Positions 45,845-62,782 of a stretch of 64,000 nucleotides of DNA are shown piece by piece. Numbering within the stretch: position 1 is the first letter of the stretch; each line of letters begins with the position of its first letter. The position numbers were made by a program, and so were the translations under genes. Source of the DNA: a virus; the IMG/VR virus record IMGVR_UViG_3300044451_000434, positions 32,001 through 96,000 of that record. One strand, 5' to 3'. The notes beneath the pieces were generated by a model. The model searched no databases and was not told the DNA's origin. It worked only from the letters and a program-made list of their open reading frames with translations.

Positions 45845-46849
45845 TTATAGAGGGAATGGGTGTGGCTGATCTCCCATACTCCACGGTTCACCACCATAAT
45901 CAGATATCGCAAGATACCTGCCGGCGTCGGTACCTAAAGAAACAAATGCCATGGGTGTCTCGATGATTCCGTTGGTGAGTTCTGTGCTGTCCAACTGGAA
46001 GACGCAGCCGAAGAACTTCACAAGAGTTGTCGGGGTTGGTCCGATTTTGGCCTGCAACATAAGATTGACATGCGGGATATTTTCGCCCGGATCATCTTCC
46101 CGATTTTTTGCCTGATCGGCCAAGGTTGATGGGCGACCAAAAAATGTTATACTACCAGTTATCTTACGCTTCTTTGGCAGGATGTCGTATGGAGCCAACT
46201 GCCCCGCGATGACATACACCTCTTCCGACTGGTTGTCAATTGTTACATTGAATTGCTTAATTAATTTGAACTCATTTTGATTGACACCACCATTGTTCAT
46301 GTTCTCCATGCCGATGGTTACATCGTTGTAAGAGATAACACGGAGAGGAGATTCCGCATCTGCAGTTGTTAAGTTGGGAAGAGCATCCGCTGCTGTTGCT
46401 GCCCGACGACCCCTGCCTCGGAATTCAGCAGTGCAATCCAAGGTACCATTGGCAGATATATCCAGTGTTATTTTGTCAACGACCATGTCTTCGTATACAA
46501 ATGTGAAACCAGAGTGGTAATGAACCACCACATCAACAGTTTTCGCGAATTTGCCATCTGCCGTTCTCCTGCCTGCAGCAGTCCACAACTCCGCGAAGGT
46601 GTCGAGGTTTCCGCCATCCTGTGCCTTATCTAGGGTGAACTTTACTTGGCCTGATGCCTTAAAATTGCCCATCTTGTATCTGGTCATGTCAATGCTGCCG
46701 TCGATATCCTCAACTGGTTCAATTGACTGTTCACCCTTGATGTTGCAAGTCGTTACACGCAGGATACTCCCGTTGATGGCCACCACGCCAGGGAATCCAG
46801 CACGCACGGGAAAATTTTGGTTACTAATAGGTTCCTCAAATGATGGCAT
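45845..46849 (-). CDS. Major tail tube protein (334 aa, two tandem tube-like domains)
   Basis: Tube motifs IKQFNVTIDN and KRKITGSITF, with N-terminal counterpart NFKASGQVKF. SD GAGGT. Precedes chaperones and tape measure. Confidence 0.8.
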   Translation of the reverse strand: MPSFEEPISNQNFPVRAGFPGVVAINGSILRVTTCNIKGEQSIEPVEDIDGSIDMTRYKMGNFKASGQVKFTLDKAQDGGNLDTFAELWTAAGRRTADGKFAKTVDVVVHYHSGFTFVYEDMVVDKITLDISANGTLDCTAEFRGRGRRAATAADALPNLTTADAESPLRVISYNDVTIGMENMNNGGVNQNEFKLIKQFNVTIDNQSEEVYVIAGQLAPYDILPKKRKITGSITFFGRPSTLADQAKNREDDPGENIPHVNLMLQAKIGPTPTTLVKFFGCVFQLDSTELTNGIIETPMAFVSLGTDAGRYLAISDYGGEPWSMGDQPHPFPL

Positions 46850-47275: not shown

Positions 47276-48361
47276 TCATAATGATGTTACACTTTCTACA
47301 TCAAGTTTCCCTGCTTCCCTTCTTGAGATTAATGGCAGCAATTTGATAAAAATATCAAGATGGTTGGGAATAGCCGAAAGATCGCAAGGTCGCGAGGGTT
47401 CTGATAGGGACGATAAGGCCACCAATGTCTCTGAAAGAGCCCCTGGAATCGGTATATGCAGCAACTTGCCTGGCGCAGACATGAACGGGACAGATGGAAG
47501 GAGATGGCTGCATCCAAGGGCCCGGAAGACTGGGCAGTCGGTCACCACCGAATCAACCCCAAATTTGGCGGCTTCAACCACAGAAACCGCAGAAGACGGG
47601 CATAGGACAGGGAAAATCGCCGCCCAAGCGCCAGCAAGCGTCTGCGCGTACAGGAGGTCGTCCACCCCGTACTCCACAGAAGAGGCCGCCCAAGCCTGCC
47701 TAGAGCCTGCTGGTAGTCTCCCACGACCAAGGTCAAAATCTCCAGGATCAGCCCCATTTGTTCCGATCACAAGCTCCCATCCACCGCTAGACAGACCAGA
47801 CTTCTCCCATTCCGACAGAAGGTATGAAAAATTATTAGACTCAAAGTTTCTCATGGGTGCAAAAAAATACTTCCCCCTCTTGATCCCGTGCACATCCTGC
47901 GAAAGCATGGCGGTTGACGGTATAGAAACTTGAACATTTTTTGCACCAGATCTGGTAGCTTGGTTTGCTGCCATCCTGCTGCAGGCTATGACCGCATCAG
48001 CTAGAGGACATGAATCGTAGGGTCTGTCAACATGTCTTTCGCAGTCGTTCAATATGTGCAACCATCCAAAATCGCCAATCCCGACCACCCTACAGGCTGC
48101 GACATGGGCGGCATCTGCGTCATCCCCAAAAGATATCACCAGATCTGGTTTCGCTGATTCGCAAAATGCGCCAAAGTTGACCGCTGCCGCAACCCCTCTT
48201 GGCAACGGCAAGCACCTTGGGATGTCTAAATCAGCAGATAGATCAAAAAACACCCCAACATGTTCGGGAAAAGATTTTTGAACATGTCGCCATATGACAT
48301 CGCCAATTCTTGAGTTGGCGGTCAACAGATGAGGGCTGCAACCTGTCACGGCAACAATCAT
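47276..48361 (-). CDS. Divergent GT4-like glycosyltransferase-fold protein (probable start MIVAVTG at 48361)
   Basis: GT-B layout: KPDLVISFGD, ADAVIACSRMA, PMRNFESNN, AAIFPVLCPSSAVSVVEAAKFGVDSVVTD (first Glu of E-x7-E lost). TGATG overlap with the upstream stop. Confidence 0.65.
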   Translation of the reverse strand: MIVAVTGCSPHLLTANSRIGDVIWRHVQKSFPEHVGVFFDLSADLDIPRCLPLPRGVAAAVNFGAFCESAKPDLVISFGDDADAAHVAACRVVGIGDFGWLHILNDCERHVDRPYDSCPLADAVIACSRMAANQATRSGAKNVQVSIPSTAMLSQDVHGIKRGKYFFAPMRNFESNNFSYLLSEWEKSGLSSGGWELVIGTNGADPGDFDLGRGRLPAGSRQAWAASSVEYGVDDLLYAQTLAGAWAAIFPVLCPSSAVSVVEAAKFGVDSVVTDCPVFRALGCSHLLPSVPFMSAPGKLLHIPIPGALSETLVALSSLSEPSRPCDLSAIPNHLDIFIKLLPLISRREAGKLDVESVTSL

Positions 48362-49269
48362 CACGGAGGCTGCCTCCAAGAATCGCCAAATCCGTATGGA
48401 GGGTGCATCTGGGCTTCGGTTGCACTCCAACTTATTTTAGCAGCCTTCAGCAATGTGTCCTTATGGACGAATCCATACTCAATATTTCTTGGCCAACATT
48501 TGTACAAAAATCTTTCAACAAGTATGGCCTTGGGGTCATTTACTACAAGATACTCGTTTTTTGCAGGCTCAGACAGCCTGATCACCTGACCGTCGACGAT
48601 CTCAGCCACATGGCAATCTTCAGATATGAATACACTGTCCAACAAAATGAACTGACCTGCAGTAATGCCGTCTGTATCTGCAAGCCTCACAAAAACATCA
48701 CCCTGCTCAATATCAGCTATGATTGACACATATCCCTTATCGCCAGCAATAGCAACAGGATTTTTCTTTAGACCTGTTTCTATAATGTTGGTAAGATGTA
48801 AAAGATACTCATAGCCCTCCTCTTGGGCGGCATCCGCAACATAGCAGACGATGTCAACCTCGTATGTTTCGTTGCTTACCTCCAAACCAATCCATTCAGA
48901 GTTCTTGCTCTTGCCATTTATCGTTATTGCAGGGTATTTTATGATAGTGTTTGGATCCCCAAGATATATACCCTGAATAAATTGCCCCTTCACAGCCTTG
49001 CGCAAATTGCAGCTCCCAACATTCCAATCAGAAAATCTGACACCATCTTGAAGAACTACATGCGTATCATCAGGAATCTCAACAACAATATGAGGATATT
49101 CAAATTCTTCACCATCGGTGATCAGCACATCATCGCCAACCTTGAAGCGATGAGAAGTTCTCAGCGTCAAAACATTGTCACCAACAGCTATGGGCTCCGT
49201 TATGGGAGATTGAAAGTTAACCCATCTGTGTATAATCTGTCGGAGACTAGTGAGAACCTTATACATCAA
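48361..49269 (-). CDS. Tail terminator/completion-like protein with two inserted beta-rich domains (302 aa)
   Basis: GIYLGDP..IKYPAITI...TYEVDIVCYV...LLHLTNIIETGL resembles the tail-terminator fold; located between connector and tube genes. Confidence 0.55.
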   Translation of the reverse strand: MMYKVLTSLRQIIHRWVNFQSPITEPIAVGDNVLTLRTSHRFKVGDDVLITDGEEFEYPHIVVEIPDDTHVVLQDGVRFSDWNVGSCNLRKAVKGQFIQGIYLGDPNTIIKYPAITINGKSKNSEWIGLEVSNETYEVDIVCYVADAAQEEGYEYLLHLTNIIETGLKKNPVAIAGDKGYVSIIADIEQGDVFVRLADTDGITAGQFILLDSVFISEDCHVAEIVDGQVIRLSEPAKNEYLVVNDPKAILVERFLYKCWPRNIEYGFVHKDTLLKAAKISWSATEAQMHPPYGFGDSWRQPP

Positions 49270-49529
49270 AGTGGGTATTTCATTATTTTTTCAACAACCC
49301 TATCAAGCATATCTTCCACAATCGCATTTATCTTGTCCATCTTGGCAGCATCTTCGGGCGAAGCGCTTCTTACTGCAGCGTCTTGAGTTGCCTCTTCTCT
49401 AGAGGAAAATATTCTTGTGCTAGCATATATGCGAGATGGAGCACTAGAAGACTCGGCAGACCCATCTTTTATGGCATTGATCTGCGCTAGAGCCGAGCTG
49501 ACAATATCTCTCATTTCTGCCATGATCAC
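49266..49529 (-). CDS. Hypothetical protein (87 aa)
   Basis: 4-nt overlaps with both neighbours. Confidence 0.55.
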   Translation of the reverse strand: MIMAEMRDIVSSALAQINAIKDGSAESSSAPSRIYASTRIFSSREEATQDAAVRSASPEDAAKMDKINAIVEDMLDRVVEKIMKYPL

Positions 49530-50251
49530 ATCTCAGGAATGTCTCTAGTCGAATCCTGATCAGTATTGGGTAGTGCATATCTACTCAGAAGCGTGGGGTT
49601 GGCAAATCTGCTTGAGATTCTATTCTGACCATGAAGAACAGTTCTCCCATTCAATATATTGCTCAACATGATGCGTGCCTGATTTCTCAACCCTTTGCCA
49701 TATTCGCTGTTTCCAGTCGCGCTCATGTAAGAGAAGTACCTGTCAAATAGACTGGCGACACAGAGACGTGCTGATGTCCCCGGGACAGGATCGGGGAATT
49801 TCACGCGCAGCAATCGTGATTCTGCGGCTGAAAAATCCACCAAGAAAGGTTCATTGACGATGAGGTTTGTTCCGTTCGCAACATCAGCGACTGTTCTTCT
49901 CTCATTAATAAATCCATTTGTCAACACAATCACATCACCAGGAACGAATACATTTGCATTTGGACTCATGATGACAACATCTGTGTTGTAGGGATCAATG
50001 TCTACCACAAGTTCAAATTCCACATCACTTATCTCTCTCAGTGGAGTGCTGTACATGGAGCTCAAAATAGAGTTTATGTACTGGTCGGCGAGAACAATGT
50101 GCTGATCAAGAATCTCGTCGGTTATCACATTCCCCTTGAGCATGTTACCAAAGTTGACGAGATCGCCTTTCTGAGTGAGCGTTGGATCTGTTGCAGTCGT
50201 AAAAGACTGGGCAAAAACACGCTTGCAAAGGTCTCGCGTTGCATATCCCAT
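49526..50251 (-). CDS. Head-tail connector/adaptor (Mu gp36/DUF1320-like) with an inserted domain (241 aa)
   Basis: MGYAT start, ILDQHIVLADQYINSILSSMYSTPL, PVPGTSARLCVASLF, QARIMLSNILNG follow the gp36-like pattern. Confidence 0.65.
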   Translation of the reverse strand: MGYATRDLCKRVFAQSFTTATDPTLTQKGDLVNFGNMLKGNVITDEILDQHIVLADQYINSILSSMYSTPLREISDVEFELVVDIDPYNTDVVIMSPNANVFVPGDVIVLTNGFINERRTVADVANGTNLIVNEPFLVDFSAAESRLLRVKFPDPVPGTSARLCVASLFDRYFSYMSATGNSEYGKGLRNQARIMLSNILNGRTVLHGQNRISSRFANPTLLSRYALPNTDQDSTRDIPEM

Positions 50252-51423
50252 CAGACCTGATCCCTAGTTATAATTCCCTTGACAAGTCTATTCTTCACAA
50301 TCTGAGCAGATGTTAAAAGCCCAGAGCAAACCGCGTTTCGCGGGTCTGCAGCCTTGCGAACATCGCCAATTTTGAACGGCAAATTTATTGAAGACATGAT
50401 TCTTTCCAATTTCTTATCGAAACCGTTTGGCATAGAAGTGCCTCCGGCGATCACCACATCAAGAGGCTTATCAAACTGACTCTTAACTTCTGTAAACTTC
50501 TTAGCAAACAAACCCACGACATGACGGAGCATAGCATCGTAATATGCGTCAAGGGCAAAAGCTGTGTCATTGTCTTCGTCTATATTTTTAAAATCAAGAA
50601 CTCGCTCTTTGAAGTCAATCACCTGAGACATAGGTACTGCAGTCTGCTCTGAAACCTGTTTATCTACCCAATCTCCGCTCCTGCTGACAGACATACCAAG
50701 AACCTGCATGCCCTTGTATGCCAAAACGCAGTTTGCCCTACCAGCACCAAATGACATTCCTATTCCACTGAACGGCACTTCTGTACCGTCATCAAGAACA
50801 ACAGACGGCCTCTCGCTGAGGATGACAGCAAGACCTTCTTCTATGACCTTTACATTCCAGCCAAGGCGGGTAAACATGGCCTTGAGGCGAGCTGCATGGA
50901 AAGTACTGTCCTGCCCACCGTCAGCGCACGGACTCGACACGCATGTGCAAACAACGGAATTTTCGTCAGGGGCCTTACCAAGAGAAGATTCTATAATGCC
51001 AGAAAGAACCAAACTCTTCTTTGGTTCATCTCTATTGAGCACTCCATCTTGAAGAGGACGACGAATCTCCACCGAACCAGGAAATAACTTGGCAACCTGC
51101 ATGGAGTCATCTCCAACGACAAAATACTGCATTCCGTCGTTTACATATCTCCAGCCATTTCTAGTCAAGATCTCTTCCAATTCTGATGAATATGGGATTT
51201 CTACAAATGCGTTCCTGACCGCAGAGACGCTTATCTTGTCATCAATGAGCTCTGCTGTCTGAAAAAACATAGTTCCCACATCAACTCCCACTGCTCGGGC
51301 GTGTGACTCTTGCGCCTGTACCGATTCAGCCTTGTTGGCAGTTTGCACAGGGGTATTCGGATTCACTGACGACCGAAGCTTTAGGGAGGCAAAATTCTGC
51401 ATGGCTTTTTCCTTGGCACTCAT
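50251..51423 (-). CDS. Actin-like ATPase (volactin-like family, 390 aa)
   Basis: Phosphate-1 VGVDVGT, connect-1 IEEGLAV, phosphate-2 GMSFGAGRAN, GDWVD, adenosine VVIAGGTS, connect-2 DPRNAVCSG. Confidence 0.9.
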   Translation of the reverse strand: MSAKEKAMQNFASLKLRSSVNPNTPVQTANKAESVQAQESHARAVGVDVGTMFFQTAELIDDKISVSAVRNAFVEIPYSSELEEILTRNGWRYVNDGMQYFVVGDDSMQVAKLFPGSVEIRRPLQDGVLNRDEPKKSLVLSGIIESSLGKAPDENSVVCTCVSSPCADGGQDSTFHAARLKAMFTRLGWNVKVIEEGLAVILSERPSVVLDDGTEVPFSGIGMSFGAGRANCVLAYKGMQVLGMSVSRSGDWVDKQVSEQTAVPMSQVIDFKERVLDFKNIDEDNDTAFALDAYYDAMLRHVVGLFAKKFTEVKSQFDKPLDVVIAGGTSMPNGFDKKLERIMSSINLPFKIGDVRKAADPRNAVCSGLLTSAQIVKNRLVKGIITRDQV

Positions 51424-51950
51424 CAGAGAAGACCCTCCAATTCATCTAATTTTTTCTTCATATCGGACGCGTCCTTAGATTTGCCTTTTTGAGGTTCCAT
51501 ATTGGTGGAAAGATTAGACGCCATTCGTGAAACAACTTTTTCATGTATAGCTATAAGGTTTTCGGCTTGCGGCTCAGATATTGATTCTACAACATCAATC
51601 TTTTCAACCCGAGATGAAACATGAACAACTTGAGGGGCAGGCATGGAAGATAACATATTTTTTAGCTCTGCTAATGATTCTGCTATGGCAGATATGGCCT
51701 TGCCGTCATTTTCTTCTCTGACTATTTTTCTCAATACGTCCATGTCTATGGTATTCTGGCGCCCACGGCTAGAATCTTTTGCCACCACTCTCAGATACCC
51801 GGCGACCACGGCTTTCTTGACTGAAGGACTTGCCTCGACAATTCTCCTGTCAGCAACAATGTCAAGATCTATAGACTGACTTGGAGACAAAATGACCTTT
51901 AGGTCTCCAAGCGACAAATGCTGCCTAGTTGTATTTACTACCAAAAACAT
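51423..51950 (-). CDS. Hypothetical protein, putative actin adaptor (probable start MFLVVN at 51950, 175 aa)
   Basis: TGATG overlaps at both ends. Small N-terminal domain, short coiled coil, C-terminal amphipathic helix MKKKLDELEGLL. Confidence 0.6.
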   Translation of the reverse strand: MFLVVNTTRQHLSLGDLKVILSPSQSIDLDIVADRRIVEASPSVKKAVVAGYLRVVAKDSSRGRQNTIDMDVLRKIVREENDGKAISAIAESLAELKNMLSSMPAPQVVHVSSRVEKIDVVESISEPQAENLIAIHEKVVSRMASNLSTNMEPQKGKSKDASDMKKKLDELEGLL

Positions 51951-52165
51951 CAGCCCTGCAATCTGGTTCGCGGTAAAGGTTTGAAATTTTTTGATGGATC
52001 TACAATCATCGTCGAACTCTTTTTGCACGATGGACAAACCATGTGAATCGTGCCCTGTGAGAAGTTGATCTCCACGTTGCCACGAGCCGCCGTACTAGAG
52101 AAACACGCAGGACACACCACCCTGAACTCCTCAGACTCATGGACCACCTCCTCTGGTTTAGGCAA
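51950..52165 (-). CDS. Zinc-ribbon protein (71 aa, TTG start)
   Basis: CPAC...CPSC pairs; SD AGGAG upstream. Confidence 0.7.
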   Translation of the reverse strand: MPKPEEVVHESEEFRVVCPACFSSTAARGNVEINFSQGTIHMVCPSCKKSSTMIVDPSKNFKPLPRTRLQG

Positions 52166-54416
52166 GGAACAAACTCCTTGCCAATTTTAACATGCAACCC
52201 CTTACATCTTCGTGATTGCATTCTGCCTCTTTGACTAAGAACTCTTCATCTATAAATGCCATTCGGTCTCGAGCTCGATTTGCACTGCCTAGACCAGATA
52301 GCCGCCAAGCCTTGCTGTCTGGCTCTTCCCCAATGAAATTTATCAGTGCGACAGTTTCTGCATCACTAATGAAATGCGGTCTTAAGCTAAAAGCCAAGCT
52401 AGCAATCACTCTTGCAGCATCTCGGCTATCATTGTTTCTGCTAGTCGCCTTATTGAATGCTTCCACAAGAGCATTATCTAACTTATTCTGCTCTTGAGGA
52501 TCAGCATTTGTCAACGATTCTCGCCATGCCTCAATACTGAATGCATTAACAACCTGCTGCAGTTTTTCGTATATCAAATTATAGGCATTCGGCCCACTTT
52601 TTGGAATGCGCTCAACGGTTCTGTTCGTGTTGTCTTTCAACAACTGCGCCATACACTCAGCCATTTCTTTACTGCTGATGGCATCTTTGATCTGCTGCAC
52701 CTTCTCCTCAAAAGGAAGACTAGAAATTCTTGGAGCCAATTCGTGCACCAGTAATTGTTTGCAACGACGCTTAGCCTGTTCTTTTTTGGAAGGAGTTTTC
52801 GGTCGACTCTGCTGAAGACTGTGAAGGTCAGATTTGTCGTAATTATCAGGTGCGAATTTCATCCAATCTCTCGGAGGATCAGCCCTATTTACCCTAACAA
52901 TGGCATTCAAAACCTTAATGCCCCCATTAACATCACCACTTTGTGTGGTGATTACAATTTGACCGTGATTGTGGTTGACATACGCTGTCTTCTTTTTGTC
53001 AAACAGCGACTTTAGCATGGTCAGTGCAGGAATTGAATAGCCACGATTAGCAACATTCATAAGCGTATCAAACCTTCCGATGAGCCTGTCACGTGCTATC
53101 TTTGCATCTCCGAGAGACTCCTTAAAAATATTTTTCATAGGATTTACGGCCGCCTGCCTATCCTTCATCTGTTCAGCACCAATCGTATCAACGGAAAGTC
53201 TATCAAGTATGCCCTTCAAAGAGCTAATATGGGTGTCAAGTTTGATGGCGAGTTGATTTTTAAATTCTTCAAGAATTTTGATAGCTTTATCGTTGTATTC
53301 AGAAAGAGGCTGACGCTCAAGATTTTGAATTTCACTCTGAATGTAGACATCAAGATCTCTATCTCCGCCTTGCCTGTCCGCGATCATGTCAAGACCTCGC
53401 TGCTCATTTGCGTCTACTCCCATTGCAAGAGTAGAGTCGTACTCATCCCGCTCGAATCGATTGACTCCAATTTCACTCCGACGCTTGTCAATCACATATG
53501 CGAACATATGTGCAACCACATCTTCGTCGCCACCCTGCAGGAGATTTACAAGCCTGCATAGAAGCGTGATGCCAACAACATCAAAACTAGTTGATATTCC
53601 TTGCATCTGATCAATAGTTTTATTAGATATTGCATGAACATTTTTCTTTTTAGAACGATTTAATTCATCTTGGACACGCCGAGGCATCTTTTCACGATGC
53701 CCATCAAAAAAACTATATACAAAGTTTCCCTTAGATCTATGAAAATCAGAAACATCTATGACTGCTCTCCCTCTTTCAATATCATTTAAATATTCAAGAT
53801 ATTGAGGATCTGATCTTCTTTTAAACCAGTCAGTTCCCAAGCCATTCCTAACACATACTGCACGAGCAGCGCTTTGATGGTTGGCAAGAGCTTGCCTGCC
53901 GAATTCTGGCAAATCGCCTTTAGATACCACATCATTCAGATGTGCGATGATGCTTTGCAGGTCATCTTGTCCTTCAGGAAATGTTGAACATGGAGACTCG
54001 TCGTGATTTACATTCGGCACCTCTCTCATGTGCCTTAAGGGCGCGGCTCCGCCCCGAATAGGTTGGGAACCACGATCACCCTGTATGGACACCTCGGGGG
54101 TCTGCAACAACTCTTTTAAACATGTAAGATTGTCAGTTAAAACATCTCGTGCCGCTTCGAGAACATGTTCCTGATTCTCGAGACCATGAATTCTTTCAAA
54201 AGCATCCTCAATCAGGCTATTCAACTCCTGACTCCGAACATCAACATGCTTAGTATGATCATCGGAAGCCCGCTGCATGGCGTCGACCACTTCAGTCAGG
54301 TATTTGTACAATTTATCGTTGCGATTCTTGATCAAATTAAGCTTCTGGGTCACCGATTCGCAAGCACCAAATGCGGTTTTTTGCAATTTCTGTGAAAACA
54401 TGATATACTTTTCCAT
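52158..54416 (-). CDS. Large helical hypothetical protein (probable start MEKYIM at 54416, 752 aa)
   Basis: Charged and helical, with an N-terminal coiled coil. The track's start at 54488 lies inside a hairpin. Confidence 0.6.
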   Translation of the reverse strand: MEKYIMFSQKLQKTAFGACESVTQKLNLIKNRNDKLYKYLTEVVDAMQRASDDHTKHVDVRSQELNSLIEDAFERIHGLENQEHVLEAARDVLTDNLTCLKELLQTPEVSIQGDRGSQPIRGGAAPLRHMREVPNVNHDESPCSTFPEGQDDLQSIIAHLNDVVSKGDLPEFGRQALANHQSAARAVCVRNGLGTDWFKRRSDPQYLEYLNDIERGRAVIDVSDFHRSKGNFVYSFFDGHREKMPRRVQDELNRSKKKNVHAISNKTIDQMQGISTSFDVVGITLLCRLVNLLQGGDEDVVAHMFAYVIDKRRSEIGVNRFERDEYDSTLAMGVDANEQRGLDMIADRQGGDRDLDVYIQSEIQNLERQPLSEYNDKAIKILEEFKNQLAIKLDTHISSLKGILDRLSVDTIGAEQMKDRQAAVNPMKNIFKESLGDAKIARDRLIGRFDTLMNVANRGYSIPALTMLKSLFDKKKTAYVNHNHGQIVITTQSGDVNGGIKVLNAIVRVNRADPPRDWMKFAPDNYDKSDLHSLQQSRPKTPSKKEQAKRRCKQLLVHELAPRISSLPFEEKVQQIKDAISSKEMAECMAQLLKDNTNRTVERIPKSGPNAYNLIYEKLQQVVNAFSIEAWRESLTNADPQEQNKLDNALVEAFNKATSRNNDSRDAARVIASLAFSLRPHFISDAETVALINFIGEEPDSKAWRLSGLGSANRARDRMAFIDEEFLVKEAECNHEDVRGCMLKLARSLFLA

Positions 54417-54451
54417 AAATAGTATTTCTGACTTGTTGCGACCTATCCTTG

Positions 54452-54497
54452 TGCGGAGGTGTGGGGCAGAAAACGAACCCCGCCCCACACCGCCGCA
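54452..54497 (-). terminator. Strong GC-rich hairpin just after phoH (terminator or mRNA-stabilising stem)
   Basis: Plus strand TGCGG-A-GGTGTGGGGC (14-nt loop) GCCCCACACC-G-CCGCA: 15 bp with one mismatch. No U-tract. Confidence 0.55.
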
Positions 54498-54503
54498 GTG
54501 ATG

Positions 54504-55193
54504 TCAGTTTTTTTCCTTGTATTTGAGGTCTATCTTAGAAACAAGACCATGTCGCTGGCAAGATTCTGGGGGGAATTGGAAACGACTAATCCCATCCACG
54601 CTCTTGAGCCTTCTAAGAGCATCTGTCAAGCCATTCCTAGACGACCTGCAATCTAGATCGCACTGGAATTCGTCACCTGCGACAACTGCTTTAGATGATT
54701 TACCAAGCCTAGTGAGGAAAAGGTGCATCTGCTCAGGAGTGCTGTTTTGCGCCTCGTCCATGATCATGAAAGTGTTTTCAAAAGTGACGCCACGCATGAA
54801 GGCAAGAGGGAGTATTTGAATTTCATCAGATGCCATCATTCTGCTAGCCGTGCTCTTCCCAAGAATTTTCTCCATAATCATCCTGATTGGAGCAACAAAA
54901 GGATCGAACTTTTGCTCAAGAGATCCAGGAAGGTATCCTAGTCTTTCGCCAGCGCTCACGTAAGGACGTGTAAGAATAATTTTGCTTATTCGTTTTTCAC
55001 TCAACATCCGCAAAGCCATGCCAGTGGCAATTGTTGTTTTTCCTGTACCCGCCATTCCATATAACATGGTCACTGCGCTGTCCTCAATTATTTTCACAGC
55101 TTGCCTCTGATGTTCATCAAGTGGCTTGAATGCTATATGGGACCCAGGACGACTGCTCTCAATCAACTGCTTGCGCTTGGACTTGTTGCTCAT
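54504..55193 (-). CDS. phoH: PhoH-family ATPase (229 aa)
   Basis: Walker A GMAGTGKT, LGYLPG, LAFMRG, DEAQN, LTRLG, GD..QCD, QRHGLV. Confidence 0.95.
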   Translation of the reverse strand: MSNKSKRKQLIESSRPGSHIAFKPLDEHQRQAVKIIEDSAVTMLYGMAGTGKTTIATGMALRMLSEKRISKIILTRPYVSAGERLGYLPGSLEQKFDPFVAPIRMIMEKILGKSTASRMMASDEIQILPLAFMRGVTFENTFMIMDEAQNSTPEQMHLFLTRLGKSSKAVVAGDEFQCDLDCRSSRNGLTDALRRLKSVDGISRFQFPPESCQRHGLVSKIDLKYKEKN

Positions 55194-55615
55194 GTCGCTT
55201 TTCCTCCCAATGTTAAGATGACAAAATCAGACGAACGAGAATCACGGCGGCACACAACACCATCCGTGAGCATCGCAACATATAAAGAGTCCACATCCTC
55301 CATACGCGATACGATTTCGTCCCAAACGGGCGAAGGGAGGCGGATACGCCTCCCTTCAAGCAACTGTAGTCTTATTTTTATTGGATTGAAGTTTGTCAAA
55401 GACTCAACCTGCACCAAAAAGTTGTCAAATTCATTAGCCAATTCCAACTGCCAAAAACCAGATTCGTCTCTTGATCGTCTCAACTGGTTTATCTGCTCGT
55501 CTCCCATACACTCTCGTAGATAGGCCAACTGATCTGCATTAAGCAGACGAGTCAATCTGCAAAATTCTGGATATGATTCAAAAATAGGTTCGTCTTTAGC
55601 TTTTTTTCTTTTCAT
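55190..55615 (-). CDS. Hypothetical protein (probable start MKRKK at 55615, 141 aa)
   Basis: ATGA overlaps on both sides. Confidence 0.55.
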   Translation of the reverse strand: MKRKKAKDEPIFESYPEFCRLTRLLNADQLAYLRECMGDEQINQLRRSRDESGFWQLELANEFDNFLVQVESLTNFNPIKIRLQLLEGRRIRLPSPVWDEIVSRMEDVDSLYVAMLTDGVVCRRDSRSSDFVILTLGGKAT

Positions 55616-55908
55616 GCTTGGATGTTTATGGGAGCGTTGAGCATGATATGGCACATGTTCAACACATGGGTGGTATCCGCGTCTGCTTCACCAGCAGCGA
55701 ACTTAACCAACAACCCGTTTTCAAGAGCAATACCCCTCCCTGAAAGCAAAGTGTTTCTGAAATTTTTGGGCATCCTATTCACTGCAGGATCATCACCATT
55801 GATGATATAATTCTTCATCTCTTCAGTAGCAAGGGCGTAGAAGAAACAATCACCATCCCCTGCAACCTTGTCAAGCAACTCTCGCAAAACTTTCTTGTTT
55901 ACGATCAT
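55612..55908 (-). CDS. Hypothetical protein (probable start MIVNKK at 55908, 98 aa)
   Basis: ATGA overlap with the upstream stop; contains VAGDGDCFFYAL. Confidence 0.55.
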   Translation of the reverse strand: MIVNKKVLRELLDKVAGDGDCFFYALATEEMKNYIINGDDPAVNRMPKNFRNTLLSGRGIALENGLLVKFAAGEADADTTHVLNMCHIMLNAPINIQA

Positions 55909-56903
55909 ACACCACCACCTGTAAATATGTATCTGAACCATCTGCTCCTGCCGCCAGGTAGAGCGTATTCAGGAGTGACAATATTTCTAGTCTTGGGATA
56001 TGGACCAAGTTTCTTGCCATCCAAGAAGCCTTTAACGCTCTCTTCATAATTCTTTTTCAAAGTGTCTAGGCTGCTCGAAAGATTTGAAGCACGCTCAGCA
56101 CTACCAAAAACAAGTTGCGGCTCCTGAAAAGTTAAAGACAGCATAATTTCTCTCATTGCATCTGCTGCAGCGCCGTAAAGAACAGCCGGGACAATCTCGC
56201 ATGGCACTGAAGCAAGACTGTAATTGCTTCTAGGCGGGTAAAAATTAAACCTGCCAAGAGCATTCGCCAAAAATCTGTACAGTTGATCATCGGAAAACCA
56301 TCTGAAATTGTAGTCGGCATTCACAATGTCATATGATGTAAATGGCGTGTTAAAAGTAACTGTACCACGAAAATAATTCGTAGAAAAGCCATCGTCTACG
56401 ATGTTGTTGTTCCTATAGATTCTGACGCCTGCTGACTGATTCCACCTCGGAAAAGAAAACGCAAAAGTGGCGTTGTCTTTTGACGGACGACCCTGCTCAA
56501 AATACACAGGTATGTTCATGGTTGGTCTTATGTGATATTCAAGAGCAACTATAAGATCCCTAATCTGCCCAAAATAAACACTTTCTGGATCGGGCCTCTC
56601 ATTTATGACAACCTCTTGAGTAATCGTGTTTATTCCAACACCATCATCATATGACCAGGTTAAATCCCATCGACCCACTTCTGCATCAGATGCAACCGAC
56701 CATATGTATGCATAATAACCATCAGATATGGTGATTGCAACATCTCCATCGACATCAACCTCTCCAGACGGACTGGTCAGAGTGACAGACACATCGGTGG
56801 CTGCGACAGGCTGAGAATTGAGAGATGTCAATCTCAGAAACAAACTGTTTGAAGTGCCTTGGGTAAATGTTCCTTGAGACTCTGTCGATTGACTTAGTGC
56901 CAT
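55905..56903 (-). CDS. Neck/head-completion protein with N-terminal Ig-like domain (332 aa)
   Basis: Ig-like VSVTLTSPSG...GYYAYIW...GRWDLTW. C-terminal adaptor-like FSDDQLYRFLANALGRFNFYPP...AVLYGAA. Confidence 0.55.
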   Translation of the reverse strand: MALSQSTESQGTFTQGTSNSLFLRLTSLNSQPVAATDVSVTLTSPSGEVDVDGDVAITISDGYYAYIWSVASDAEVGRWDLTWSYDDGVGINTITQEVVINERPDPESVYFGQIRDLIVALEYHIRPTMNIPVYFEQGRPSKDNATFAFSFPRWNQSAGVRIYRNNNIVDDGFSTNYFRGTVTFNTPFTSYDIVNADYNFRWFSDDQLYRFLANALGRFNFYPPRSNYSLASVPCEIVPAVLYGAAADAMREIMLSLTFQEPQLVFGSAERASNLSSSLDTLKKNYEESVKGFLDGKKLGPYPKTRNIVTPEYALPGGRSRWFRYIFTGGGV

Positions 56904-61794: not shown

Positions 61795-61830
61795 GAAAAA
61801 TAACTACCCACCCCTTTCGGGGTGGGTAGT
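61795..61830 (-). terminator. Rho-independent terminator after the major capsid gene
   Basis: mRNA ACTACCCACCCC-GAAA-GGGGTGGGTAGT (perfect 12-bp stem, 61803-61830) followed by TATTTTT. Confidence 0.9.
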
Positions 61831-61856
61831 CGTGCTTCAAGATTCACCCAAACTTA

Positions 61857-62726
61857 TCAGGTGGTGGTGGGATCCACGGTGATGACGGACACGGCATAGT
61901 CGTTCATGACCACGATGCCGACCTCCTCATAGATCACCCAGCCAAGACGCAGCTTCTTTGGATCATCGGCGGGAAGGACAGTGATGTCCTGGCGGATGGG
62001 GAATGCGCCAACGGTGTCTGGGCTAGCAGTGACGATAATCTTGGTGTCATCGAGCTGGCTTGACACATGGATGTCAGCCGTCCACAGGTGACCGTAAAGA
62101 CCAGTGGTGAGGATCTCACGGGTGGTGGCCTCATCATAGAAGTCCTTTCCAAAGCTGCGGACTGCTGAGTAAGACTCAGGATGCATGACCACCTTTGAGG
62201 CCACCAGATCGTGGGTCTCAATATACTTGTAGGCAGTGTTCAAAGACGCAGTCTCCAAAGTGCCCACATTGGTGATCTCCTGAGCTGCTGGAGCAGCAGC
62301 AATCAGAGCGTTGAAGATGTTGCGATCCTCTTCCTTCTGGATTGCCTCCTTTGCCTTGATCTGTGCACGGTCAACGATGTAGAAGCGACGTGCTTTGATC
62401 TCGGACAGACGGATGGTGGGGTGTGCTGCAATCTCGAAGGTGGGGACAAGAACTTCCTCTCCCTCGGTGATCTGATCAGGCACTGCACCCTGACGGGCAA
62501 CGATTGTGGCCACGGAGGCAACATCGCGCTCGTAGCGGGGAAGAGCGCCTTGGGGGAGCTCGTCCACCATCAGGAGCTTGCGACCGACGGCCTGGTACTC
62601 CAGGGAACGCCGAATCGGCTCCACCATCGCTTGAGCAAGGGCAACACGCCCCTCCTCGGTCGACAAGGCCTGTGCAATCACGGCCTCTTTCTCGTCGTAA
62701 GTCAAACCATCTTTGTTGATGCTCAT
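61857..62726 (-). CDS. Major capsid protein, HK97 fold (probable start MSINKD at 62726, 289 aa)
   Basis: GRKLLMVDELPQG, VPTFEIAAHPTI, AIQKEEDRNIFNAL, KVVMHP, GLYGHLWTADIHVS, LGWVIYEEVG. SD AAAGGA; followed by a terminator. Confidence 0.9.
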   Translation of the reverse strand: MSINKDGLTYDEKEAVIAQALSTEEGRVALAQAMVEPIRRSLEYQAVGRKLLMVDELPQGALPRYERDVASVATIVARQGAVPDQITEGEEVLVPTFEIAAHPTIRLSEIKARRFYIVDRAQIKAKEAIQKEEDRNIFNALIAAAPAAQEITNVGTLETASLNTAYKYIETHDLVASKVVMHPESYSAVRSFGKDFYDEATTREILTTGLYGHLWTADIHVSSQLDDTKIIVTASPDTVGAFPIRQDITVLPADDPKKLRLGWVIYEEVGIVVMNDYAVSVITVDPTTT

Positions 62727-62741
62727 TGTGTTTTTCCTTTC

Positions 62742-62782
62742 TCCGACACCCCCTGATTCACGCATCAGGGTGGTAGGTCGGA
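62742..62782 (-). promoter_or_regulatory. Bulged stem-loop in the capsid gene 5' leader, ending 1 nt before the SD
   Basis: mRNA TCCGAC-ct-ACC-a-CCCTGAT-gcgtga-ATCAGGG-GGT-GTCGGA: 16 bp with two bulges. Confidence 0.6.

Follow-up and report, generated by a model that had tools for sequence, protein, structure and literature searches.

Organization of the locus

The DNA analyzed, hereafter the window, is a 64,000-nt stretch of the IMG/VR record IMGVR_UViG_3300044451_000434, from a lake-water phage with a genome of roughly 400–500 kb. It contains an actin-like gene within the following array (coordinates are those of the window; the 39 loci are described below):

45845–46849, minus strand: tail tube protein (Pfam Phage_tube_2, 5.7e-17; PHROG 290, 3e-19), in 37 of 39 related loci
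48361–49269, minus strand: 302-aa protein, candidate for a neck or tail-completion function, conserved in 38 of 39 loci (33–45% identity)
49266–49529: 87-aa ORF preceding the 302-aa gene
49526–50251, minus strand: putative head-tail adaptor (weakly Mu gp36-like), 241 aa, overlapping the actin stop codon
50251–51423, minus strand: Volactin-family actin-like ATPase, 390 aa (Pfam PF25216, full length)
51423–51950, minus strand: adaptor candidate, 175 aa, with phage-only homologues and a complex prediction with the actin
51950–52165, minus strand: Zn ribbon, 71 aa, with a TTG start 8 nt after AAGGAG
52158–54488, minus strand: large protein, 776-aa ORF, start probably an ATG near 54416
54504–55193, minus strand: PhoH-like ATPase (Pfam PhoH, 1.7e-66)
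61857–62765: MCP-like gene, 72–77% identity in relatives

The ORFs and coordinates of the four-gene chain running from the Zn ribbon to the gp36-like gene are as an earlier note on this DNA had given them, and the one-base TGATG overlaps by which that note had chained these genes are present at all three junctions (Zn ribbon/175-aa, 175-aa/actin and actin/gp36-like); the 87-aa and 302-aa genes overlap in the same manner. A 204-aa long form of the 175-aa protein, given by the ORF finder, is wrong and was rejected because the homologues all begin at the methionine of an MF/MY..N.T motif. No family could be assigned to the 302-aa protein. The 776-aa ORF has a counterpart at the same place in relatives (774–1034 aa), with a conserved position and a fast-evolving sequence; indeed, blastp and iterated HMM searches detected homology inside subgroups and none across them, and no Pfam match was obtained.

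The block around the chain is structural. The tail tube gene, which forms the tail-side boundary of the conserved block, and the MCP-like gene lie there, and no strong terminator was found in the co-directional array from the MCP terminator to the tail genes, but the same co-directional operon also includes PhoH, a subtilase and glycosyltransferases. PhoH, a non-structural passenger, lies upstream of the module in most loci and is also syntenic. Since the operon is shared with PhoH and glycosyltransferases, the position of the actin gene argues for late co-expression rather than for an assembly function. In RNA-library contigs of a 90–95% relative, the actin and adaptor pieces have a depth of 5–7 vs 58–130 for MCP, which is weak evidence. 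Many bins of the stretch are uncovered by these contigs, which proves nothing.

A full-length actin of the Volactin family

The product of 50251–51423 is a full-length Volactin-family actin with the fold of filament-forming actins. The Volactin profile PF25216 matches it over model positions 2–321 of 321 with 195.9 bits (cut-off 35; E=1.5e-57), whereas with the Pfam MreB profile E is no better than 1.9e-3 and ParM families are missing from its Pfam matches, so that the proposed kinship with volactin rather than with MreB or ParM is borne out by the HMM search. The same picture extends to the family, with a Volactin match in 44/44 homologues (best 6e-70) and MreB scores that stay marginal (E from about 1e-3 to 6e-8); the Pfam matches of these 44 members do not include ParM/StbA (E up to 0.01), nor is Hsp70 PF00012 matched in any of them. 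A PDB sequence search with the family profile returned nothing at E below 0.01, and the placement rests on the HMM and the fold ranking.

The five actin-fold motifs announced for this gene are present, and the alignment shows that they are invariant across the 44 homologues:

Phosphate-1, GVDVGT, actin residues 46–51
Connect-1, IEEGLAV, actin residues 194–200
Phosphate-2, GIGMSFGAGRAN, actin residues 220–231
Adenosine, VIAGGTSMPNGF, actin residues 324–335
Connect-2, DPRNAVCSG, actin residues 360–368

The phosphate-2 motif is non-canonical, an invariant Ser224 occupying in the motif alignment the position of the Asp of MreB, ParM and actin. In the AF2 model (pLDDT 85.6, pTM 0.83), residues 1–38 are disordered; residues 1–43 make up a lineage-specific disordered N-terminal extension, in which inspection found no K-x-A cleavage-type motif. 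The best solved folds for this model are BeeR (Z 26.1), crenactin (Z 25.3) and MreB (Z 24.6), actin and MamK being also among the top ones, with R1 ParM at Z 18.2 only. Hsp70 nucleotide-binding domains are nearly as good by fold (BiP, Z 22.5), and the top BFVD matches are viral Hsp70 homologues. In the ESM Atlas, Volactin clusters are found at TM 0.8 and a Salactin (PF25229) cluster at TM 0.68. The same resource contains, in Acidobacteriota, an HU-type DNA-binding domain fused to Volactin. The founding member of the family, VolA of Haloferax volcanii (HVO_2015), is the only one for which polymerisation is shown; its dynamic filaments form in the cytoplasm in vivo (PMC10869688).

The actin gene is single copy in each of the relatives G001–G005 and is the best-conserved gene of the block, with 55–68% identity across loci vs 23–57% for its neighbours. 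It has the same orientation as the neck genes and is translationally coupled to them. Furthermore, inteins occur at two conserved sites in its homologues.

Conservation of the module in very large phages

Our main set comprises 39 related IMG/VR loci whose actin is at least 52% identical. The order adaptor, actin, gp36-like is kept in all of them, the adaptor and gp36-like genes being found in 39 loci and the Zn ribbon and tube genes in 37. Three deeper relatives, with actin identities of 47%, 35% and 33% (the 47% one recoded, TAG=Q), have the same order, so the trio synteny that the earlier note had suggested to examine extends beyond the main set. A single clade (SH-aLRT 98) unites the actins that come with the module; its phages are megaphages from freshwater and other environments, with genomes of 0.35–0.55 Mb, including near-complete relatives of 494 and 548 kb (98–100% complete). 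Other viral volactin clades, more distant (26–36% identity), are devoid of these neighbours; likewise, the huge-phage actins LR745208 and LR756511 (27–29%) showed no common neighbours and no informative Pfam matches. For homologues at intermediate distance, the names of their clusters gave no information.

The synteny put forward in the earlier note is supported, since linkage to neck and tail genes exists in every clade relative examined, but the fixed neighbours of actin are not head genes, and the MCP gene lies 27–51 kb from actin in relatives. In two lineages a 72–74-aa gene is inserted between the adaptor and actin genes (in the G004 lineage, a 72-aa MCP-N-arm ORF).

On the upstream side, the Zn ribbon directly precedes the adaptor in 37/39 loci, the other two being cut by the locus edge. 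Its residues C18, C21, C44 and C47 and an E-x-N-F motif are invariant in 11 orthologues, and its tail is basic (P-x-P-K/R-T-R-R; net charge +1 to +3). On the downstream side, the gene called a gp36-like connector follows actin in 39/39 loci, but this label is weak: the match to Pfam Phage_Mu_Gp36 (PF07030; E=1.4e-3, 19.3 bits) is under the cut-off of 24.7, 4 of 10 orthologues match this family (best 7e-5), and the match to PHROG 195 'head-tail adaptor' (5e-5) covers residues 1–74 only.

The 175-aa protein and its predicted complex with actin

The adaptor begins with a conserved N-terminal alpha/beta domain (residues 1–60); a variable middle part, also helical, then leads to a conserved helix (about 130–145) and to a terminal motif. 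The terminal MKKKLDELEGLL is real, its last six residues are conserved, and the protein ends in E-L-x-x-hydrophobic-hydrophobic in 39/39 loci. Homologues are confined to phages and belong to no Pfam family, and the ESM Atlas returned viral hypothetical clusters only. Although the N-domain is predicted with a pLDDT above 90, Foldseek found nothing for the adaptor at E up to 0.001 and the VIA-wide best Z is 4.3; the major vault protein repeat and YqbF, considered as fold relatives, were discarded as Z 4.3 is within background. A search for longer homologues, in which the N-domain would be fused to other proteins, gave adaptors only. A kinship of this domain with the capsid-adjacent GT4 was likewise not retained as it is unproven (blastp E=0.13; hhalign with the GT4 N-terminus P=9e-4, probability 22%), and in five relatives the 20 kb upstream of actin contain no GT4; nothing common to the 212-aa protein was detected.

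Three runs of the adaptor–actin complex prediction gave ipSAE values of 0.81, 0.79 and 0.81, whereas none of 3 controls exceeded 0.00; the mark used for the complex tool is reached by 58/80 solved complexes and 2/110 mismatched pairs. The runs share at least 95% of contacts, with a partner pLDDT of at least 75, and there is no solved sequence relative from which the complex could have been memorised. The predicted interface is made by adaptor residues 132–175, i.e., the last 45 or so, which would wrap actin subdomains IA and IB and place the E-L-x-x-hydrophobic-hydrophobic tail at the conserved IA/IIA junction. It includes the invariant adaptor residues E170 and L171, and the actin residues contacting the tail are 80–98% conserved. 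The IA/IIA region is where ParR binds ParM and where WH2 motifs bind actin. The multimer prediction agrees with the link through a C-terminal helix that the earlier note had put forward, and the 175-aa protein is supported as a dedicated actin partner whose conserved C-terminal part would, on this prediction, bind actin. The interface is, however, large: on a single monomer it covers IB as well as the IA/IIA junction. A regulator that sequesters or caps actin, instead of a cargo adaptor, could therefore account for it too.

A possible role in virion assembly and its alternatives

With about even confidence, we propose that the conserved zinc-ribbon/adaptor/actin module is a late ATP-driven actin system in which the adaptor couples to cargo, most likely a virion assembly intermediate and not DNA. 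The actin would polymerise with ATP late in infection, alongside virion proteins, and the adaptor, whose helical middle probably makes it an oligomer, would attach filaments, or just their ends, to the cargo that is recognised by its conserved N-terminal domain, a recognition in which the zinc-ribbon protein may help. This cargo would most likely be the head, the neck or the head-tail joining site. Against this proposal stand, besides the close Hsp70 fold scores, the shared operon and the large interface described above, the Ser that phosphate-2 carries where Asp is canonical, the relatives of the family that act on DNA (salactin) or carry HU-type fusions, and an adaptor N-domain whose best fold match is Z 4.3 and which was found in no other protein.

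In a narrower and more tentative form, close to the procapsid transport that the earlier note had in mind, actin filaments might capture heads via the adaptor N-domain and the zinc-ribbon protein and move or align them for neck/tail attachment, as an actin counterpart of PhuZ trafficking. A lead in keeping with this reading comes from the 72–74-aa gene mentioned above, which joins a copy of the first ~35 residues of the capsid protein to an adaptor-like acidic-leucine tail (N-R-F-E-I-L-D-L-E).

We regard it as unlikely that the module instead serves to position or segregate DNA, as ParMRC, AlpAC and salactin do; in that case the adaptor, or else the basic Zn ribbon, would bind phage DNA or the replication compartment, and the filaments would position or partition the huge genome. 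Such a function is exerted by AlpC/AlpA of prophage CGP3 (PMC4446434), and salactin partitions DNA (PMC10869688). Furthermore, the combination of an actin with an adaptor bearing a C-terminal docking peptide is the ParM/ParR architecture, Acidobacteriota have HU-Volactin fusions, the mildly basic Zn ribbon ends in an R-rich tail, and the relatives are without a tubulin able to do the job: none of five related records, of which two are 98–100% complete, has a PF00091 match. However, the ParM family is not matched, and the module sits inside a late neck/tail operon in every relative, while alpAC are early genes. The adaptor is acidic (whole-protein pI about 5.4; N-domain net charge about +1) and its fold search gave neither a ribbon-helix-helix nor a helix-turn-helix match. 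The module and its surroundings are free of repeat arrays: centromere-like repeats beyond chance-level short matches are absent from 48000–56000 (a centromere could lie in the unsequenced 60% of the genome), no iterons were found, and the only tandem repeat of the window, at 46780, is inside the tube gene. The earlier remark that the 175-aa protein has no evident DNA-binding motif is thus in line with its acidity, with the lack of a DNA-binding fold match and with the missing centromere-like repeats.

A somewhat less probable reading takes the actin as a late remodeler of the host cell, acting on its shape or size, its membrane or the lysis site, with the 175-aa protein as a factor that sequesters, nucleates or caps the actin. 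The predicted interface, wrapping one monomer from IB to the IA/IIA junction like thymosin/WH2-type regulators, would suit such a factor, and volactin is a cell-shape determinant (PMC10869688); yet a pure regulator would have no need of the second, strongly conserved globular domain of the adaptor, in which, moreover, sequence inspection found no transmembrane or amphipathic membrane-binding segment. Least probable in our view is that the protein forms no filament and serves as an actin-fold ATPase in the role of an assembly chaperone or minor neck or tail virion component (cf. closterovirus Hsp70h in virion tails), or as a packaged protein acting early in the next infection. The location of the gene, fixed between neck genes, the non-canonical phosphate-2 and the likeness to viral Hsp70 homologues and BiP speak for it, whereas the sequence family is Volactin with no PF00012 match in 44 members, the best folds are those of filament formers, and the N-terminal extension has no K-x-A cleavage-type motif.

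Significance and comparison with known systems

To our knowledge, work on phage-encoded cytoskeletons has dealt with tubulins (PhuZ, TubZ) and with ParM-like or Alp actins, the latter tied to DNA. The phages of the present clade (0.35–0.55 Mb), in whose checked records tubulin is absent, share an actin of another family; its late gene belongs to their core set, is strongly conserved and is a target of inteins, and it comes with a predicted docking adaptor of its own. Should the filaments prove real, actin would join tubulin among the polymers used by very large phages to organise the bacterial cytoplasm, and the pair would provide a compact model of two proteins (390 + 175 aa) for work on actin–adaptor coupling and on the little-known volactin family. 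A description of this module was not found in the literature searched on volactin and on huge- or jumbo-phage actin, a search whose coverage excludes most subscription journals.

The ParM/ParR/parC system resembles the phage module in that the C-terminal peptide of a small adaptor sits at IA/IIA of the actin, which is here a prediction. It differs in gene order, the phage adaptor gene being upstream of actin and not downstream, in the absence of a ParM-family HMM match and in the fold score (Z 18.2 for ParM vs 24–26 for MreB, crenactin and BeeR); the phage adaptor is, in addition, acidic, with no ribbon-helix-helix detected and no centromere repeat found. AlpC/AlpA of the Corynebacterium glutamicum prophage CGP3 likewise comprises a phage-encoded actin-like protein and a co-transcribed, actin-binding adaptor (PMC4446434). 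However, the alp genes are early and AlpA binds phage DNA for replication, while the module described here belongs to a late structural operon, shows no sign of binding DNA and has an actin of another family.

The PhuZ spindle, known from phiKZ-like jumbo phages, serves both to position the phage nucleus and to deliver capsids (PMC9067925, PMC8314001). Both PhuZ and, if it polymerises, the present protein are cytoskeletal proteins encoded by very large phages, the former with a tubulin fold and the latter with an actin fold. We know of no dedicated docking adaptor encoded alongside PhuZ and used by it. Salactin, BeeR, crenactin and MreB are the nearest structural neighbours of the phage actin, with marginal sequence similarity. 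VolA shares with it the Pfam family (196 bits) and the actin fold but acts in the archaeal rod-to-disk transition, whereas the phage actin is encoded in a late neck/tail operon together with a phage-only adaptor.

Organization of the module

The zinc ribbon, adaptor and actin genes, hereafter the module, lie within an IMG/VR virus record of 164 kb (39% complete by CheckV), of which the window spans bases 32001-96000. Every gene around them is on the minus strand.

Genes around the module, in the direction of transcription
61857-62765, minus: MCP-like gene, the first, with a strong terminator after it
downstream of the MCP-like gene, minus: glycosyltransferases and subtilase
between these and PhoH, minus: conserved 332-aa protein
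54504-55193, minus: PhoH
52158-54488, minus: 776-aa ORF, between PhoH and the zinc ribbon
51950-52165, minus: zinc ribbon, 71 aa
51423-51950, minus: adaptor, 175 aa
50251-51423, minus: actin, 390 aa
49526-50251, minus: gp36-like protein (candidate head-tail adaptor), 241 aa
downstream of the gp36-like gene, minus: 87-aa ORF, then 302-aa ORF
between the 302-aa ORF and the tail tube, minus: GT-like gene, then 122-aa ORF
45845-46849, minus: tail tube, with the giant tail genes next

The ORFs, overlaps and motifs described in the earlier note were confirmed as a whole, the TGATG overlaps being found at the three junctions of the chain from zinc ribbon to gp36-like gene, and a further one joins the 87-aa and 302-aa ORFs. 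A 204-aa form of the adaptor proposed by the ORF finder was rejected as too long because orthologues begin at an internal Met, which gives 175 aa.

The strongest terminator-like hairpin of this region (61802-61831, 13-bp stem and T-run) is directly 3' of the MCP-like gene. A GC-rich inverted repeat (54452-54497, 16 bp, 94% complementary, 14-nt loop, no T-run after it) separates the PhoH stop codon from the probable start of the 776-aa gene, and might serve in processing or stability at the module's head. The 776-aa ORF matches no family; in the related loci L002-L013, a 774-1034-aa protein is always found upstream of the zinc ribbon, and these positional counterparts diverge so fast that homology is detectable within subgroups only. 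Its product might be a fourth component of the module, specific to the lineage.

A phage member of the Volactin family

The HMM comparison places the window actin in the Volactin family (PF25216), which it matches end to end with E=1.5e-57, whereas its MreB match is marginal and ParM is not matched (Pfam). All 44 homologues match Volactin, 39 match MreB weakly, 15 match Actin weakly and none matches ParM or Hsp70, in agreement with the earlier assignment to volactin rather than MreB or ParM. Likewise, the five nucleotide-binding motifs are present and invariant in the homologue alignment; from motif alignment, we infer that Ser224 of phosphate-2 occupies the position of the Asp of other actins. 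The family profile found no solved structure by sequence. The AF2 model (pLDDT 85.6, pTM 0.83, residues 1-38 disordered) is nearest to filament-forming actins, namely BeeR (Z 26.1), crenactin (25.3), MreB (24.6), actin (22.6), MamK (21.1) and R1 ParM (18.2), although an Hsp70 nucleotide-binding domain is matched as well (22.5). In the ESM Atlas its neighbors comprise Volactin clusters (TM 0.8), HU-Volactin fusions and Salactin. The disordered N-terminal stretch of about 43 residues (residues 1-43, 51295-51423), which includes a short helix (residues 3-11), is limited to its own sub-lineage (relatives at least 78% identical), the actin of other clade members beginning 3-5 residues ahead of phosphate-1. 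One homologue from a GC-rich source (P0175, 729 aa) has two complete volactin-like domains, one after the other on a single chain.

Several homologues of 700-750 aa (P0162, P0173, P0174, P0184) consist of this actin interrupted by inteins, with Intein_splicing and LAGLIDADG or HNH domains, at two distinct conserved sites, R-S|G-D-W and A-N|C of the phosphate-2 loop (residues 248/249 and 231/232 of the window actin, respectively). We know of no report of inteins within an actin-family gene. In several relatives, free-standing homing endonucleases (L005:7178-8005, L006:6678-7592; LAGLIDADG_2 E=9e-22, HNH 3e-5) have inserted between adaptor and actin and account for the gaps of about 800 nt there in 8 of the 39 close loci; the L005 copy repeats the first five actin codons.

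Distribution and synteny

The actin has 606 matches by word-indexed and 834 by exhaustive search, and the phage is present in lake-water metagenomes of many studies. Viral contigs with close relatives (52-94% identity) reach 548 kb. One Volactin gene and no tubulin were found in each of five relatives, two of them near-complete (494 kb, 98%; 548 kb, 100%) and three partial. The only close "cellular" match is a 7.6-kb contig (L016, JBECUL010000084.1) assigned to the bin Candidatus Asgardarchaeum abyssi. Its adaptor, inserted ORFs, actin and neck genes are those of the megaphage locus L011, and mis-binning of a phage fragment is almost certain. Bacterial homologues (L017-L019, L021, L022; ESM Atlas clusters) are about 30% identical, in contexts that differ from the phage module. 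They lie beside ParA/MinD-like ATPases in Magnetobacteriaceae and delta-proteobacterial MAGs, or beside GvpL/GvpF and a Cdc48-like ATPase in Scalindua and Planctomycetia, and in Acidobacteriota the protein includes a fused HU-type DNA-binding domain.

When 71 IMG/VR loci were surveyed with HMMs made from the actin's neighbors in the window, the actin was found to have the adaptor on its upstream side and the gp36-like gene on its downstream side in all 39 loci where it is at least 52% identical; the synteny proposed for examination in the earlier note holds in each of these. The zinc ribbon is found in 37 (the locus edge cuts the other two), the 302-aa gene in 38 and the tail tube in 37. This order is kept in deeper relatives, P0166 (47%, TAG=Q recoded contig), P0179 (35%) and L072 (33%), the last with a shorter adaptor of 128 aa. 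TAG is a sense codon (TAG=Q) in L030, a 92-kb contig of GCA_040384165.1 with an actin 47% identical, whose adaptor was missed by the gene caller and is intact under this code, ending T-D-I-E-D-I-I. In the maximum-likelihood tree, a branch with SH-aLRT 98 sets the 37 distinct module-bearing actins apart from the rest, and another 31 viral loci (26-36% identity) form separate clades without the module neighbors, each with its own small upstream ORF. In two such clades (26-31% identity; L073, L091, L103; L076, L080, L081, L084, L088, L093; LR756511), which lack a neck-gene context, the ORFs overlapping the actin start encode 176-178 aa with a terminal basic helix, or 71-91 aa ending K-I/V-K/E-F-G-K. 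Within the block, no gene is as well conserved as the actin (55-68% identity vs 23-57% for its neighbors). The earlier interpretation is supported in part, for the Volactin family, the predicted docking and the link to neck genes. The MCP-like gene is not a fixed neighbor, being 10 kb from the actin in the window and 27-51 kb in relatives.

Predicted adaptor-actin complex

The adaptor, whose homologues are phage only, is an acidic protein (median pI 5.4) with no Pfam family or fold match. Three parts of it are conserved: an N-terminal alpha/beta domain (residues 1-60, pLDDT >90, D28-L29-D30 invariant), a helix at about 130-145 (I135 invariant) and the extreme C-terminus (E170-L171 invariant), where E-L-x-x-hydrophobic-hydrophobic occurs within the last 8 residues in 39 of 39 loci (33 distinct tails). 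The docking of this C-terminus on actin, put forward in the earlier note, is predicted with actin 40-390 and adaptor 118-175, each given as an alignment: ipSAE was 0.81, 0.79 and 0.81 against 0.00 for the best of three controls, at least 95% of contacts were common to the runs, and the partner had a pLDDT of 75 or more. When the tool was calibrated, 58 of 80 solved complexes passed its mark, as did 2 of 110 mismatched pairs. In the model, the adaptor rests its helix 132-144 on actin helices 134-148 and 174-186 and, through residues 147-149, supplies an extra strand to actin 93-95 (subdomain IB). Its tail (167-175) contacts actin 202-205, 217-218, 237-239 and the C-terminal helix 360-378, at the IA/IIA junction. 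Actin residues contacting the tail are 80-98% conserved, those beneath variable adaptor parts less so. A secondary-structure map, as opposed to a superposition, suggests that this predicted site is equivalent to that of ParR and WH2.

Two megaphage lineages have a 72-74-aa ORF between adaptor and actin (L006:7602-7826, L011:7521-7739; also L049, L056, L016). It copies the first ~35 residues of the MCP, at about 66% identity to that of the same phage, and ends N-R-F-E/K-I-L-D-L(E), like the adaptor tail; it could link the capsid to actin or act as a capsid-targeting tag.

Role of the module and relation to known systems

We favor a late role in which the module would act on virion parts, because it is embedded in a neck/tail operon at every divergence depth, and is translationally coupled to a candidate head-tail adaptor, and because no DNA-binding features were found in it and no repeats in or near it. 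Its position should not be over-read, since the operon also includes PhoH, subtilase and glycosyltransferases. Contigs of RNA libraries from two lake samples (90-95% similar to the window), whose uneven cover favors RNA as their source, span pieces of the actin and the zinc ribbon/adaptor junction at depth 5-7 and the MCP-like gene at 58-130 (about 10-20x other genes; contig ends at 61861-61873), which is weak evidence of module transcription and cannot rank genes.

That actin filaments, with the adaptor or the zinc ribbon, act instead on phage DNA is unlikely given that no DNA-binding features were found in the adaptor and no repeats in or near the module, even though the pairing of actin with a docking adaptor would be ParMR-like by analogy, AlpAC (PMC4446434) and salactin (PMC10869688) offer precedents, HU-Volactin fusions exist and the zinc ribbon protein has a basic tail. 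Less probable still is a 175-aa protein that regulates the actin rather than coupling cargo to it, as might be suggested by the predicted interface, which wraps a whole face of the monomer.

A literature search found no paper describing the module. As regards ParMRC, neither the ParM family (Pfam) nor a centromere, in the form of repeats in or near the module, was found. The likeness to ParM/ParR, as to AlpC/AlpA, resides in an actin plus a docking adaptor, the docking being here predicted, and the module is a variation on this known actin-plus-adaptor arrangement.
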